Shown here: positions 3,293-13,844 of the stretch, one piece after another
Layout of the letters: every line of letters starts with the position of its first letter
How positions within the stretch are numbered: the first letter of the stretch is position 1
From: a virus
Virus record (IMG/VR): IMGVR_UViG_3300037067_015653
Location: 1,221-65,220 of that record
Length of the DNA stretch: 64,000 bases
Reading direction: 5' to 3' (one strand)
Program-made: the position numbers and the translations under genes
The notes under the pieces: model-generated
The model's input: only the letters and a program-made list of their open reading frames with translations
Told to the model about the DNA's origin: nothing
The model's database searches: none

Positions 3293-5926
3293 TTAATAAG
3301 GTTTTTCTATTTTGTTAATCCGATCTAATAAATTTTTTGCTTCGGTTGAATGTGAATAAACCATCAAAAATTTTTCACAATATTCTTTTGCTTTATAATA
3401 ATCCTCCATTCCAAATTCCAATTCAGCTAATCGAATGTAAAAAGAATCAAATTCATGAGTTTCTTCCATCACATTACTTATTATTTCCATTCCTTTCTGA
3501 ATGTCCTTCAGAAGATAAGTTTGCCCCATTTCAAACCGATATCTTTTATTATTTTCAGGATAACATTTAACTAAAAATTTGTAATATTTTAAAGCTTTAT
3601 TTACTTTTTCTAAATGATGATAAGTAGTAGCTAAACCCCAAATCACTTCAACTTTTAATGAATTTATTTTTAAAGCTTTTTTTAAATATTTTAAAGCACC
3701 TTTAAAATCCTTTTTTAATCCACATTCTCGACTTAATTCAATAAATTTATTTATTTCAATTTCATTAGTTAAATCCTGTCTTTTTTTATTCTCTTCTAAA
3801 AAATCCATTTTCATTTTAAGAGATTTATAATAAAATAATTTAGCTTTTTCAAAAACATCAATCTTTGTTGGATCAGTCATATATTCTTCCATTATTTCTT
3901 CACTTTCTAATAATGGCCGAGCCCAATTTCCATTTTCAAGTAATTTATCCCATTTATCCATTTTTTCAAGATATAAATTTACAGAATTTAAAACCAACTC
4001 ATTTTTCTTTATTTCATTACAAGTTAAATCCACCATTTCTACAAAAACTTGAATATAAATTTTTTTTAATTTCAATGCAGATTCTTTTGCCGCTTCCAAT
4101 ATTAAAGAACTTCTTTTTATTCTTATCTCTAAATCTTCTTTATCTTTCAATAAATGTTTAGTTTTTCCATTAACTTTTAATTCTCTCTTATGTATTTCTC
4201 TTGAAGTCTTATATATGTGAAGTGATAGAATATTACTCTGTTTCGTTAATTCCTGTGCCATGGTTGCAAATTTTTCATTCTCTGATAATAATTCCTTTAA
4301 TTCATTTTCTGTTGCATCTTGCATTGATTTAAGCGGTTTTAGGCCATTATCACAAGCATCCACAATTTGATCAAATAAAACTATCTCCCAATTTAATCTT
4401 CTCTTAGCTTCCCAGATATCTTTTTCAAATTGTGGCTTAAAAGATAAATACTTATTTATCTTTGTTTTGTTTATTTTTTTATTACAAAAATCTTTTAAAG
4501 CCTTTTTAAATGACATCTGTTCACAATGTTTTTTCTTAGCACCACCTTCACAAGAATTGATAAATTTTATTTTTGGGTAACTACTAAAAATATTCTCCAT
4601 AGCCAAAACAAAACTAGCCAATCCGGAATTTGTTGGAACCAATCCACCAAAATACCCAGGAATTAAAACAACATCCCCCATTTTATGGTTATCCTGAATA
4701 GTTGAATTTGGATCAGTCACATCCCAATCAATAGAACCATCATCACGGAAATTAATCTTTCCATTAGCATCCCCCAATTGATTATGAGATAATCCATCTT
4801 TTTGATTATAAGCACAATCAAAACCTATATGAATTATTGGATTACAACCGAGATGAATAGCTAAACCAATTGCCATATGACCAACAGACCCCCCTTGATC
4901 TAACTGTCCTTTTTCATTAAGCATCTCAACAACAGTATTTTCATTTGTAGGATTATACCCGGTGACAATAAACTTAGGTCCTTGCCATTCTTTTAATATT
5001 CTTGAATAACTTCGATTTAAAGCCACCAAAGGAACATCTTTAATGTAAAACAAACCATCAAAATGCTCATAATTTACCTCACCATAATCAACTGTACAAA
5101 TAAAATCAGGCTTTATATCAAAAGCTAAAAGAGGCCGCAACATTTGAGCAATTGCAATAATAATCACTTTATTTCTATAATTATTATCTAATAATTGAGG
5201 AATAAGATCAATTACAGAGGGAGCCGAAAGAATAATAACAGCCGGCTTATTTTTAAATAAATCTTTTATTTCCTTTACTCCCCGATGTTTGATAATGTGG
5301 GGGAGATTTTTAATGTCATTTTCAGCTATTAATGCACCAGCTCCAACTACTGTTCCAGTATTACACATCATCTGATTAATTGTATCTAATGCTAATTTTG
5401 TCACATCCGCATAAAATTGATTTAAAAAAACGGTGTAACTTTCTGCAAAGCTATGCCATAATTGAATTACTTTATTACTTTCAATCAAAGAAAGCATATT
5501 AGTTAATTCATCTTGATCAGTACAAATAACCAATTTACCTGCTTCAATATATCTTGAATAATCATAATTTGAAAAAGCTAAATTTAATAATTTTGGAATA
5601 GTTTCGATTAAAATAACTAAATGTTTTTTTGATGAATTCTTTAAAATCTTATTGAGCATGTAACCATTACCAACCCCAATTTGAATAGAACATTCATCAT
5701 CAAATAATTCAATTTTTTCTAAACTTTTATTTAATAAAGTAAATTCATCATTAAGAGGATAAGAAAGAATCTCTTTTGCTCCCTGTTTAATCAAAAAATT
5801 ATTAGAAGAAAGAATTTCTATATTAGGATGAAAATCTTCTTTTGTTTCTTTTAATAATTTTTTGGCTATTATCTCTGAATGTTTCTCAATACATACAAAA
5901 TTTTTACTATAAATATTAGACATCAT
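3293..5926 (-). CDS. maf: Maf/DUF115-family (motility-associated factor) glycosyltransferase with C-terminal TPRs
   Basis: N-term IGVGNGY; core LFKNKPAVIILSAPSV...LLAFDIKPDFICTVD...GGSVGHMAIGLAIHLGCNPIIHIGFDCAY...INSCEGGAK typical of Maf; TPR-like helices in last ~160 aa; ends a NulO operon. Confidence 0.85.
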   Translation of the reverse strand: MMSNIYSKNFVCIEKHSEIIAKKLLKETKEDFHPNIEILSSNNFLIKQGAKEILSYPLNDEFTLLNKSLEKIELFDDECSIQIGVGNGYMLNKILKNSSKKHLVILIETIPKLLNLAFSNYDYSRYIEAGKLVICTDQDELTNMLSLIESNKVIQLWHSFAESYTVFLNQFYADVTKLALDTINQMMCNTGTVVGAGALIAENDIKNLPHIIKHRGVKEIKDLFKNKPAVIILSAPSVIDLIPQLLDNNYRNKVIIIAIAQMLRPLLAFDIKPDFICTVDYGEVNYEHFDGLFYIKDVPLVALNRSYSRILKEWQGPKFIVTGYNPTNENTVVEMLNEKGQLDQGGSVGHMAIGLAIHLGCNPIIHIGFDCAYNQKDGLSHNQLGDANGKINFRDDGSIDWDVTDPNSTIQDNHKMGDVVLIPGYFGGLVPTNSGLASFVLAMENIFSSYPKIKFINSCEGGAKKKHCEQMSFKKALKDFCNKKINKTKINKYLSFKPQFEKDIWEAKRRLNWEIVLFDQIVDACDNGLKPLKSMQDATENELKELLSENEKFATMAQELTKQSNILSLHIYKTSREIHKRELKVNGKTKHLLKDKEDLEIRIKRSSLILEAAKESALKLKKIYIQVFVEMVDLTCNEIKKNELVLNSVNLYLEKMDKWDKLLENGNWARPLLESEEIMEEYMTDPTKIDVFEKAKLFYYKSLKMKMDFLEENKKRQDLTNEIEINKFIELSRECGLKKDFKGALKYLKKALKINSLKVEVIWGLATTYHHLEKVNKALKYYKFLVKCYPENNKRYRFEMGQTYLLKDIQKGMEIISNVMEETHEFDSFYIRLAELEFGMEDYYKAKEYCEKFLMVYSHSTEAKNLLDRINKIEKPY

Positions 5927-6116
5927 CTACCTCACAACAATCACAAAATGGTTTGCCTTCTTTTTCAAATTTTTCAACAATAAAATTCTCAATTTCTTGT
6001 AATGACTCACCATGAAACTCAATTTTTTCAATTGGAATGTCTATTTCAATTGAAACAAAATCTTTATTTGGATAAGTCTCAACTTTTAATTTATTCATCG
6101 GGATGGTTATTCTCAT
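5916..6116 (-). CDS. Hypothetical protein (C-terminal CDCC)
   Basis: Overlaps both neighbours, AAGGAG RBS. Confidence 0.55.
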   Translation of the reverse strand: MRITIPMNKLKVETYPNKDFVSIEIDIPIEKIEFHGESLQEIENFIVEKFEKEGKPFCDCCEVDDV

Positions 6117-6292
6117 TTACAAAGCTCCTTACTTAAATTATTTATTTCAGCATCGTTTTGAGTTATTTTATTAAAAATAATCTTTGCTTCTTTTGGAGAT
6201 GTTTTAAAAGCTAATTTCAATAAATCCATCCAACAAATATTATTCTTAATTCTTATTTCAGATATTTTATTTATTATTTCTTTATTTGTCAT
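6113..6292 (-). CDS. 59-aa helical protein resembling small proteins of nonulosonic-acid gene clusters
   Basis: Below ORF-track cutoff; MTNKEIINKISEIRIKNNICWMDLLKLAFKTSPKEAKIIFNKITQNDAEINNLSKELCK; abuts both neighbours; NNxxWMDLLxLAF resemblance recalled from memory. Confidence 0.65.
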   Translation of the reverse strand: MTNKEIINKISEIRIKNNICWMDLLKLAFKTSPKEAKIIFNKITQNDAEINNLSKELCK

Positions 6293-12749: not shown

Positions 12750-12761
12750 CTTATTACTCCT

Positions 12762-13844
12762 TCAAATTTTATTATGAAATCCTTTTCGATCAGTCCTATA
12801 TTTTCTTATTTCTTCTTTTTTATCCGTTCCAACAAACTTATACACATTTTTATTTAAATTAAAAAAATCATAAATCCTTTGAACTTTCAACCCATCTAAA
12901 CCAGAACAAATTAAAGGGTTTTTATCTCTTAAAAAATCAAAAATATTCATATATAAAACATACAAAGATTGTTCTAAATTATTATTTTCTATAACAATAT
13001 CATTCTCATAATCCAAAGAATTAAAATTTCCATAAACTTCTTCTTTTTTCTTATTAAAAATTTTAGTTTTTTTACAATGATCAAATAACTGAATTCTAGC
13101 GTTTTCCGTTAAAATATCTAATTCAAAAATACTATAATCTCTACCATCCGAGGGAGTGAAATAGACATTTTTACAATGTTCGAATTCCATCCAAACAGGG
13201 AAAGTCAAATCCTTTTGATCATAGTCATCATAATAGTTTATTCGTTTTCCTAAAATGTTTCCAGTTTTAAAATCACCAAAAAAATAACTGCATAAATCTA
13301 AAGCGTGACTTGCATCCCGAACAAACCCCCTGACATATATAACGTTGCAAGCTTTTACTTTTCCATAATAATTATTAACTAATAATTCTCGTAATGATTG
13401 AATTGAAAAAGAAAATCTTCGAGTATAATTAATTACTAATTGTATTTTTCTTTTTTGATAAAGTTGATAAATTTCTAAAGCTTGCTTATAATTCAGACAG
13501 AAAGGTTTTTCAACAATTACTAACTTAGGATTAAAATGCTCTAAAATTTCCTTCAAAACATCATAATGAAATTCGGTAGAAGTAGAAACTGTAAAAACAT
13601 CTATATATTCATTTTTTCTTTTTAAACCCTGCAAAGATAAAAACCCTAAACAATTCCATTTAAATTGTGCTTCTTCTTTTTTTTCAAAATTTCTATCAAC
13701 AATATAAAAATCTGTAATTAAATTTGTTTCTCTAAAATGATACAATGCATGAGCGTGTGTTAAAATAAATTTTGAACAAATAGAATCAAATTCATATTGT
13801 TTTAATGCTCCAATACTCCCGGCCCCAATAATTGCACAATACAT
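12762..13844 (-). CDS. Gfo/Idh/MocA NAD-dependent oxidoreductase
   Basis: IIGAGSIG, LTHAHA, VEKP, INYTRRF, SHALDL. Confidence 0.88.
   Translation of the reverse strand: MYCAIIGAGSIGALKQYEFDSICSKFILTHAHALYHFRETNLITDFYIVDRNFEKKEEAQFKWNCLGFLSLQGLKRKNEYIDVFTVSTSTEFHYDVLKEILEHFNPKLVIVEKPFCLNYKQALEIYQLYQKRKIQLVINYTRRFSFSIQSLRELLVNNYYGKVKACNVIYVRGFVRDASHALDLCSYFFGDFKTGNILGKRINYYDDYDQKDLTFPVWMEFEHCKNVYFTPSDGRDYSIFELDILTENARIQLFDHCKKTKIFNKKKEEVYGNFNSLDYENDIVIENNNLEQSLYVLYMNIFDFLRDKNPLICSGLDGLKVQRIYDFFNLNKNVYKFVGTDKKEEIRKYRTDRKGFHNKI

Follow-up and report, generated by a model that had tools for sequence, protein, structure and literature searches.

We report that an uncultured phage carries, in one tightly spaced block, genes of the nonulosonic acid (NulO) type joined to a Maf-type protein glycosyltransferase. 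The block occupies positions 3293 to 13844 of a 64,000-nucleotide stretch (the window), which corresponds to bases 1221-65220 of the 65,220-bp IMG/VR virus record IMGVR_UViG_3300037067_015653 and holds 84 open reading frames (ORFs). The module is a near-universal, syntenic trait of a large clade of uncultured phages. We favour, if only modestly, the reading that the block is a lytic-cycle operon which makes a pseudaminic-type sugar activated with cytidine monophosphate (CMP), and that the Maf O-glycosylates a protein held by its tetratricopeptide repeats (TPRs), most likely a virion protein. If true, viruses of prokaryotes would here be seen for the first time to glycosylate a protein with a nonulosonic acid, and Maf would gain its first non-flagellin acceptor.

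Gene content and the Maf transferase

The original prediction had named nine genes in this block, all of which lie on the minus strand at the positions that it gave. Its list was correct as far as it went, but passed over an HNH endonuclease and a 66-aa ORF. In the direction of transcription, the features are:

12762..13844, minus strand: Gfo/Idh/MocA oxidoreductase, 360 aa (Pfam PF01408, 45.8 bits)
11961..12749, minus strand: CTP_transf_3 cytidylyltransferase 1, 262 aa (Pfam PF02348, 62.7 bits)
11158..11988, minus strand: CTP_transf_3 cytidylyltransferase 2, 276 aa (Pfam PF02348, 43.9 bits)
10493..11161, minus strand: possible xylose-isomerase-like TIM barrel, 222 aa (AP_endonuc_2, 18.7 bits, below the 31.1 cut-off)
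9166..10485, minus strand: DegT/PseC-like pyridoxal-phosphate aminotransferase, 439 aa (Pfam PF01041, 229 bits)
8336..9163, minus strand: NeuB-family synthase without SAF domain, 275 aa (Pfam PF03102, 134.9 bits)
7393..8334, minus strand: PseB-type UDP-N-acetylglucosamine (UDP-GlcNAc) 4,6-dehydratase, 313 aa (Pfam PF02719, Polysacc_synt_2, 283 bits)
6714..7295, minus strand: GNAT N-acetyltransferase, PseH-like step, 193 aa (Pfam Acetyltransf_3, 79 bits)
6293..6736, minus strand: free-standing HNH homing endonuclease (PHROG 374/3377, E 6e-37)
5916..6116, minus strand: 66-aa ORF without Pfam match, overlapping the Maf start by 11 nt
3293..5926, minus strand: Maf-1-type glycosyltransferase, 877 aa (PF01973, MptE-like/Maf, DUF115; NCBIfam; TPRs)
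3261..3281, unstranded: 8-bp GC-rich hairpin, 12 nt past the Maf stop codon (terminator scan and sequence)

Of all these proteins, the 877-aa one is best defined by its fold, and its earlier assignment as a Maf with TPRs is borne out. Pfam PF01973 (MAF_flag10/MptE-like) matches residues 203-375 with 141.1 bits against a cut-off of 34.6 (144 bits on searching the phage record itself), and the NCBIfam PseD model NF050051 aligns over positions 40-625 of 640, at 108.3 bits and thus short of its 670-bit cut-off. The protein consists of an N-terminal domain, a MAF_flag10 catalytic domain at about 200-480, a helical region and four C-terminal TPRs at about 720-875. The TPRs are matched by Pfam at residues 737-854 and appear in the structural model as helical repeats at 720-874; moreover, the family profile matches consensus TPRs and those of O-GlcNAc transferase (OGT) and SPINDLY at positions 720-870. 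Structures were predicted for this Maf and for a 193-aa protein, and family-library scans took in part of the 84 window ORFs. The AlphaFold2 model of the Maf, computed with the family alignment as input, has a predicted local distance difference test score (pLDDT) of 90.8 and a predicted template modelling score of 0.86. Foldseek places the Magnetospirillum magneticum Maf (5MU5) at rank 1 in the PDB (E 6.5e-16, probability 1.00, 725 columns, template modelling (TM) scores 0.39/0.49), followed by TPR proteins including O-GlcNAc transferase and SPINDLY. The family profile also retrieves 5MU5 from the PDB, covering the PAxxVxxGPS...PDF stretch; a single-sequence phmmer search of the PDB with the N-terminal 520 aa gave no match.

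Among 38-39 family members, D280 (PDFxxxVD motif) and S347 (GGSV) are invariant and D370 nearly so. In a mutagenesis study of bacterial Mafs, two acidic positions and a conserved Ser are critical, namely 324 and 415 in MmMaf, D272, S334 and D357 in CbMaf, and D285, S356 and N379 in GkMaf (10.1101/2020.06.03.131540). The phage spacings (D280-S347, 67; D280-D370, 90) fit those of Cb (62/85), Gk (71/94) and Mm (91), an equivalence to the 5MU5 residues that we infer from spacing and not from alignment, since the HMMER alignment ends 4-5 residues ahead of the first site. Judging from the model, the phage protein has a true Maf fold and would probably act as a transferase.

The sugar genes were assigned with profile hidden Markov models, which upheld the predicted families at the Pfam level and left the TIM barrel weak. 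With the finer NCBIfam models, PseB (TIGR03589) is the best match of the dehydratase, at 347.3 bits and below its cut-off of 407.75 (FnlA 200.7, LegB 50.1). The DegT protein scores 161.6 bits with PseC (cut-off 423.5) and 147.2 with LegC, both under cut-off, the GNAT 31.8 bits with PseH (cut-off 93.1), and the NeuB-family protein 109.6 with PseI (cut-off 340.25) and 128.3 with the NeuB model (cut-off 399.65). Neither cytidylyltransferase matches a PseF model in NCBIfam; KdsB-type models alone were found, at no more than 45 bits. Superfamily-level membership in Pfam holds for the aminotransferase, the acetyltransferase, the synthase and the cytidylyltransferases. As judged by sequence, PseB, DegT, the NeuB family and Maf appear to be the strongest assignments, and the TIM barrel and the exact identities of the other enzymes the weakest.

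Comparison with solved structures adds detail for three of the enzymes. In the PDB, the NeuB-family protein comes closest to the 290-aa sialic acid synthetase 6NCS (E 2.9e-15), with which its KFQ, HCVSxYP, SDH and E-x-H stretches align; we take the SDH and E-x-H stretches to be metal ligands. The SAF domain is missing from the 275-aa phage protein, and 6NCS likewise has just 290 aa. Both cytidylyltransferases match 6OEW ('Cytidylyltransferase') best, the first near full length (E 1.1e-19) and the second almost end to end (E 2.3e-18). The first is a candidate CMP-NulO synthetase, the second is an accessory paralogue, and the TIM-barrel protein is also accessory; an ESM Atlas lead for this 222-aa protein points to the same TIM-barrel family, carried by 25% of one cluster. 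The Gfo/Idh/MocA protein, whose PDB sequence matches to proteins of its own family are weak (E 3e-8), is the first sugar gene and adjoins a cytidylyltransferase in most related loci.

The genes are tightly coupled, as had been claimed, with gaps or overlaps of at most 28 nt save for two, between PseB and GNAT (97 nt) and between HNH and the 66-aa ORF (176 nt). An SbcC-like ATPase half is the upstream neighbour of the sugar genes, 9 nt off. At the other end, the hairpin at 3261..3281, which has a good T-run on the plus strand only, is likely the end of the transcription unit; further terminator-like hairpins lie at about 15.6 kb. From the tight spacing, the adjoining SbcC-like gene and the hairpins, the block looks like the distal two thirds of a ~12-kb lytic-cycle transcription unit. 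A promoter scan was uninformative (89 sites against 94.2 expected). The HNH gene is inserted between GNAT and Maf and stands outside the pathway.

Conservation and phage origin of the module

Related Mafs were collected in three ways. A word-indexed search returned 121 proteins, the first 106 rows of which are full-length Maf+TPR proteins (802-970 aa, 346-1975 bits), many of them on 55-70 kb contigs. At E <= 1e-30, HMMER found 4,342 proteins among 1.84 billion representatives; the phage type makes up about the first 105 listed representatives (at least 572 bits, mostly 850-1010 aa), and listed scores are down to about 300 bits by rank 150. Finally, a profile from 39 Maf+TPR proteins gave 64 pattern matches, of which 51 were confirmed, at 50 distinct IMG/VR loci (L numbers below).

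A GNAT homologue is present in 46 of the 50 loci, always a short way upstream of Maf. PseB follows with 43, DegT with 39, Gfo/Idh/MocA with 36, cytidylyltransferases 1 and 2 with 33 and 32 (the two cross-hit, and there is usually one gene per locus) and NeuB with 31. The TIM protein has homologues in five loci and the HNH endonuclease in four, at other operon positions (L014, L015, L018, L050); the 66-aa ORF has none in the 50. A second cytidylyltransferase beside a TIM gene occurs in few loci only, for example L002, L004 and L021. Ten loci without a NeuB match have a 212-244-aa protein at the same position, and the one member scanned belongs to the NeuB family (PF03102, 39 bits). The SAF domain is missing from every NeuB homologue of these loci (about 250-315 aa) except that of L040 (397 aa).

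The recurrent gene order is Mre11-like, SbcC-like, cytidylyltransferase, Gfo/Idh/MocA, DegT, NeuB, PseB, GNAT, Maf; in L002, the closest relative (Maf 57% identical), GNAT comes directly after NeuB. In this survey of Maf and neuB co-occurrence in IMG/VR, all six core sugar functions are found in 31 of the 38 loci whose DNA reaches 8.5 kb or more upstream of Maf. The remaining seven miss one to three core functions, in part because insertions displace genes beyond the 10-kb flank. Further genes stand in or near the operon in single loci or groups of loci: a 350-375-aa protein in the sugar operon of seven (L014, L018, L029, L035, L041, L044, L050), lying between NeuB and PseB, one scanned member of which has BNR_2 (sialidase-like) repeats at 42 bits; a radical-SAM protein just upstream of Maf (L015 8859-9875); an SPFH/Band-7 protein within the sugar operon (L017 2755-3684); and a tyrosine integrase (L040 2783-3832).

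Four loci (L041, L044, L045, L050) encode the Maf in two pieces, divided at residue ~452-455: a catalytic ORF of 454-464 aa and a helical/TPR ORF of 490-516 aa. Between the halves lie one 121-aa ORF in L041, one 231-aa ORF in L044 and several in L050 (264 and 241 aa among them). Such loci resemble naturally occurring two-part forms of the fused enzyme and, as far as gene structure can tell, support a separable targeting module.

A search that started from the baseplate wedge protein, with 80 loci kept from 481 confirmed matches, gave a view of the clade from a second gene. Among the 26 of these loci with at least 8 kb downstream, Maf is in the flank in 17 and elsewhere on the contig in four. 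The other five comprise two small fragments, in which no Maf was found, and three loci, two of which are proviruses, of an outgroup that is only distantly related (35-38% identity) and has no Maf, no 193-aa protein and no fibre.

The phage character of the record, which the original prediction had assumed for the surroundings of the block, is confirmed by structural and replication genes in PHROGs, by direct terminal repeats in the 65,220-bp record and by matching GC content (0.23-0.28 in the sugar/Maf block, 0.23-0.29 in the flanking replication genes). All long ORFs of the window except one are on the minus strand. PHROGs assignments include:

47103-48464: major head protein
49963-51312: portal
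41736-43244: tail sheath
39164-40864: tape measure
24407-26338: DNA polymerase
27174-28589: DnaB helicase

Pfam further recognises a large terminase of the T4 type, a sigma-70 region-2 protein, Mre11-like and split SbcC-like proteins, and RecA/UvsX-like and gp32-like proteins. The phage is an uncultured myovirus, and its major head protein reaches at most 39% identity with any of 50,697 GenBank phage records, Azospirillum phage Cd being the best. In a 160-aa protein (window 28940-29422), several G-[IT]-W-[KE]-x-G repeats follow one another (GIWKGGTWKGGIWKGGTWEYGTWENGIWENGIW...).

That the block is an assembly chimera, or host DNA in a viral bin, has a practically negligible probability. Related Maf genes do occur among seven genome-collection matches, all contigs of metagenome-assembled genomes (MAGs), under the labels of six unrelated lineages (Melioribacteraceae, WWE3, Alphaproteobacteria, Woesearchaeota, Desulforudis, Thermodesulfobacteriota). 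So wide a scatter indicates that the binning of such contigs is unreliable, and the matches are short contigs or, in one case, an entire phage-sized contig of 57.7 kb. We read them as mis-binned phage contigs and rejected these lineages as hosts. Against a chimera stand the terminal repeats, the shared GC content of the block and its phage neighbours, and above all the recurrence of the same order with phage flanks in dozens of viral contigs from many samples.

Acceptor, sugar and competing readings

As we envisage the favoured pathway from the enzyme families, PseB, the DegT aminotransferase and the GNAT would convert host UDP-GlcNAc to UDP-2,4-diacetamido-2,4,6-trideoxyhexose. The release of UDP might be left to the host or to another enzyme of the block, which has no recognisable PseG or NeuC gene. 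The SAF-less NeuB-family enzyme could then join the freed hexose and phosphoenolpyruvate to a pseudaminic-type nine-carbon acid, to be activated as a CMP-sugar by a CTP_transf_3 enzyme, and the Gfo/Idh/MocA protein may tailor the sugar, for example by epimerisation, by analogy with the prophage enzymes EpaA and EpaB. The 877-aa Maf, whose fold is modelled, would move the sugar to Ser/Thr of a protein which its C-terminal TPR module would pick out, as in Shewanella Maf-1. The particle would thereby acquire a coat of sialic-acid-like sugar.

No flagellin gene had been seen in the window, and this extends to the whole record: neither Flagellin_N nor Flagellin_C has a match at E <= 1 in the 65,220 bp. 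Given a near-universal, syntenic module and the lack of flagellin in the phage, we consider a virion protein the most likely acceptor. Possible acceptors are an S/T-rich fibre, the adjoining cement-like 193-aa protein or an S/T-rich protein of the head module. The first two are:

31275-32876, minus strand: S/T-rich fibre protein, 533 aa, candidate acceptor
32855-33436, minus strand: conserved 193-aa protein, candidate acceptor

No window protein is richer in Ser/Thr than the fibre (S+T 23.3%, window mean 11.4%). Next come a protein of 167 aa encoded just downstream of the head gene (46014-46517; 22.8%) and one of 445 aa (22.0%). In 30 of the 36 loci that extend 4 kb or more beyond Maf on its downstream side, Maf and the fibre genes converge. 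The Maf-less outgroup has neither the fibre nor the 193-aa protein, which also speaks for a virion target. The 445-aa protein (54338-55675), which has no family match, adjoins a 788-aa protein (window 51975-54341) with cadherin-like, Laminin_G_3, TIG and pectate-lyase-like domains. Both genes, situated between the portal region and the terminase region, are without counterpart in L002, and their products could be a depolymerase or adhesin.

The gene for the 193-aa protein is located between baseplate wedge and fibre, and its 45-aa N-terminus is near-invariant across 28 phages. The structural model (pLDDT 77) bears a weak but consistent likeness to capsid cement/decoration (gpD-like) proteins. 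The best Foldseek match is Pam3 chain 8hdt_G (E 5e-3), all cement matches are weaker than E 1e-3, and an ESM Atlas cement lead rests on 31% of one cluster; a role as a cement/decoration protein is a lead only, taken from the model. A cement-like fold is odd at this tail-module position. Aromatic-x-x-Gly-aromatic repeats, often F-S-x-G-F, occur in the C-terminal 80 aa of the baseplate wedge (window 33512-34306) and at 44645-45169. The wedge repeats number 0-10 copies in the clade and are missing from six of seven Maf-less outgroup homologues. As an obligatory acceptor or sequon they were rejected, since at least a dozen loci with a Maf have none.

On large contigs, the nearest relatives of the phage Maf are three ~1000-aa Maf+TPR homologues: P0187 and P0194, paralogues on one 2.6-Mb contig, and P0205 on a 428-kb contig. 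Both contigs are presumably bacterial chromosomes. A search of 300 further genomes from one phylum found no P0187-type protein at E <= 1e-60. When metagenomes were scanned with the ~1000-aa group, most matches were Mafs of 620-670 aa (~25% identity) that adjoin a full-length NeuB and are presumably cellular; further contigs of the phage clade also came up.

Several observations weigh against virion glycosylation with a self-made sugar. The adjacency of Maf and fibre genes is a convergent operon junction, possibly architectural only, and the two lie 25 kb apart in the window itself. The ~1000-aa homologue on the 2.6-Mb contig aligns with the phage Maf from end to end, TPR included, at 26% identity, and the alignment takes in the TPR signature W-G-x-A-T-x-x-H-H-L; the phage TPR could therefore still bind a flagellin-like host protein. 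Some of the 50 loci are nearly identical to one another (L014/L018 and L030/L031, for example), so that they do not represent 50 independent phages. On the side of the sugar, neither PseG (TIGR03590) nor a hydrolysing epimerase of the NeuC/LegG type (PF02350) is matched anywhere in the 65,220 bp at E <= 1, and the PseC, PseH and PseI scores are far under their equivalog cut-offs, so that the pathway may be host-dependent. Finally, no PseB is present in the records of L002 (64% complete) and L010 (42% complete); either the host supplies it or the records are incomplete.

The broader proposal, that a clade of ~55-110-kb tailed phages coats its own virions with a self-made pseudaminic-type sugar through a Maf whose TPR was retargeted from flagellin to a structural protein of the phage (the fibre, the 193-aa protein or a head decoration protein), is a tentative one that falls a little short of an even chance.

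Alternatively, the Maf may modify host flagellin or another host surface protein (pilin, S-layer) in infection or lysogeny, where it could mask receptors, exclude superinfecting flagellotropic phages or keep progeny off debris. All characterised Mafs act on flagellin, according to two studies (10.1101/2020.06.03.131540, 10.1101/2023.12.03.569772), and the phage TPR is homologous to that of the ~1000-aa Maf on the 2.6-Mb contig. Moreover, at least one relative, L040, has an integrase, prophage NulO-modifying enzymes that alter the host capsule have been published (PMC12053666), and viral neuABC genes are read as host-surface remodelling in the Lake Biwa paper (10.1101/655167). We nevertheless consider such a host-directed role unlikely. 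The module is near-universal and syntenic in the clade and not a sporadic moron, and it lies within a recombination/replication operon, with no separate promoter signal (89 sites, 94 expected). The record is bounded by terminal repeats, no integrase turned up among the scanned window proteins, a subset of the 84 ORFs, and the host is not known to be flagellated.

A different doubt concerns the sugar. The system could be incomplete or host-dependent, with a product other than a pseudaminic-type nonulosonate, or the block might merely boost or tailor a host pathway. This would fit the lack of PseG and NeuC homologues in the record, the SAF-less NeuB, the sub-cut-off PseC, PseH and PseI scores, the lack of a PseF model match, the L002 and L010 records without PseB, and the extra enzymes (Gfo/Idh/MocA, second cytidylyltransferase, TIM barrel). 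We judge it quite improbable, given that a solved SAF-less sialic acid synthetase of 290 aa exists (6NCS) with which the metal-site stretches align, that NeuB-family, CMP-transferase and Maf genes occur together in 31 of 38 loci, and that Maf donors known so far are CMP-linked ulosonic acids (10.1101/2020.06.03.131540). The predicted pathway stands in that nonulosonic-acid-type genes are joined to a Maf, and fails in that the set is not the canonical PseBCHGIF. Because PseG and NeuC are missing, NeuB has no SAF domain and scores stay below the cut-offs, we call the sugar 'pseudaminic-type' and not Pse5Ac7Ac.

Very improbable, finally, is an acceptor other than protein, with the sugar placed on phage DNA, lipopolysaccharide or capsule. 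The block does lie among DNA replication and recombination genes, and virus-encoded glycosyltransferases that hypermodify DNA are known. No thymidylate-synthase-like gene, of the kind expected for a hydroxymethylase, was found in the 65-kb record, which weakens the DNA-modification reading. Furthermore, the protein has the fold of a Maf protein glycosyltransferase together with a TPR protein-binding module, and no further glycosyltransferase or polymer export gene was found among the proteins scanned.

Relation to known glycosylation systems

The original prediction knew of no described phage module that combines NulO synthesis with a Maf. A full-text literature search, in which most subscription journals were not covered, returned no paper on a phage Maf/DUF115 protein or on NulO protein glycosylation by phages; phage NulO genes as such, by contrast, have been published (10.1101/655167, PMC12053666). 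With tblastn, the 50,697 GenBank phage records yielded no Maf relative, a NeuB relative in two records, both uncultured, and a PseB relative in 11, six of which cover at least 80% of the query. The lack of Maf in these records implies that this biology is invisible in cultured phages.

Maf has been known only as a flagellin modifier, and a Maf fixed in phages without flagellin points to a new acceptor class and to a new use of sialic-acid-like sugars. A virion coat, if true, would bear on adsorption, particle stability, recognition by hosts and grazers, and immune recognition of phages. For glycoengineering, the phages would also be a source of compact and portable Ser/Thr 'sialylation' modules whose targeting domain is separable, and their non-canonical gene set (no PseG, a SAF-less NeuB, a cytidylyltransferase plus Gfo/Idh/MocA) is a test of the minimal enzymes needed for a CMP-nonulosonate.

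In Campylobacter and Helicobacter, the flagellin glycosylation islands encode a pathway whose steps run PseB-PseC-PseH-PseG-PseI-PseF. The same list of enzymes is given in 10.64898/2026.04.20.719630. Like the bacterial pathway, the phage has PseB-type, DegT, GNAT, NeuB-family and CTP_transf_3 genes in one operon with Maf. Unlike it, the phage has no PseG, its NeuB is SAF-less, it carries an additional Gfo/Idh/MocA protein, a second cytidylyltransferase and a TIM barrel, and all its proteins apart from PseB score far below the equivalog cut-offs.

The mycobacteriophages described by Freeman et al. (2023, Cell Host Microbe) reportedly decorate their own capsid and tail proteins by means of phage glycosyltransferases, which are said to belong to other families and to use other sugars, with no nonulosonic acid and no Maf. 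By analogy, we propose that the phage module may work like mycobacteriophage virion glycosylation.

Nonulosonic acid metabolism genes borne by phages have two precedents. In Acinetobacter baumannii prophages, EpaA (CTP_transf_3 plus aldo-keto reductase) and EpaB turn pseudaminic acid (Pse) into 8-epi-Pse (PMC12053666), and the Lake Biwa viral genome LBVG_26 carries neuA/B/C (10.1101/655167). As in EpaA, the phage pairs a cytidylyltransferase with an oxidoreductase, here of the Gfo/Idh/MocA family. The precedents differ in that they alter or supply a host capsule or lipopolysaccharide sugar, with no Maf or other protein glycosyltransferase reported; furthermore, EpaAB require the Pse pathway of the host (PMC12053666).

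As to the transferase, the Magnetospirillum magneticum AMB-1 Maf (5MU5) resembles the phage protein in being its top structural match and in the acidic/Ser spacings, which fit its critical residues. It differs in sequence (~14% identity, TM 0.39/0.49), has no matching C-terminal TPR array and is a bacterial flagellar enzyme. Closer in architecture is the 822-aa Maf-1 of Shewanella oneidensis MR-1, the 'bipartite' pseudaminyltransferase of Unay, Kint and Viollier, whose C-terminal TPR binds flagellin, suffices for binding and is needed for glycosylation, as described in their paper (10.1101/2023.12.03.569772). Both are single chains of ~820-880 aa with an N-terminal domain, MAF_flag10 and a C-terminal TPR, encoded beside Pse-type biosynthesis genes; the likeness is one of architecture as described there and not of sequence comparison. 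Unlike Maf-1, the phage enzyme comes without a flagellin gene, is split in four related loci and belongs to a clade set apart by score.

Overall, bacterial Maf/flagellin systems, viral neuABC clusters, prophage NulO tailoring enzymes and, reportedly, glycosylation of phage virions with other sugars are already published. In the system that we describe here, a phage clade has domesticated bipartite glycosylation of the Maf-1 type, uncoupled it from flagellin and combined it with a donor pathway that is slimmed and non-canonical.

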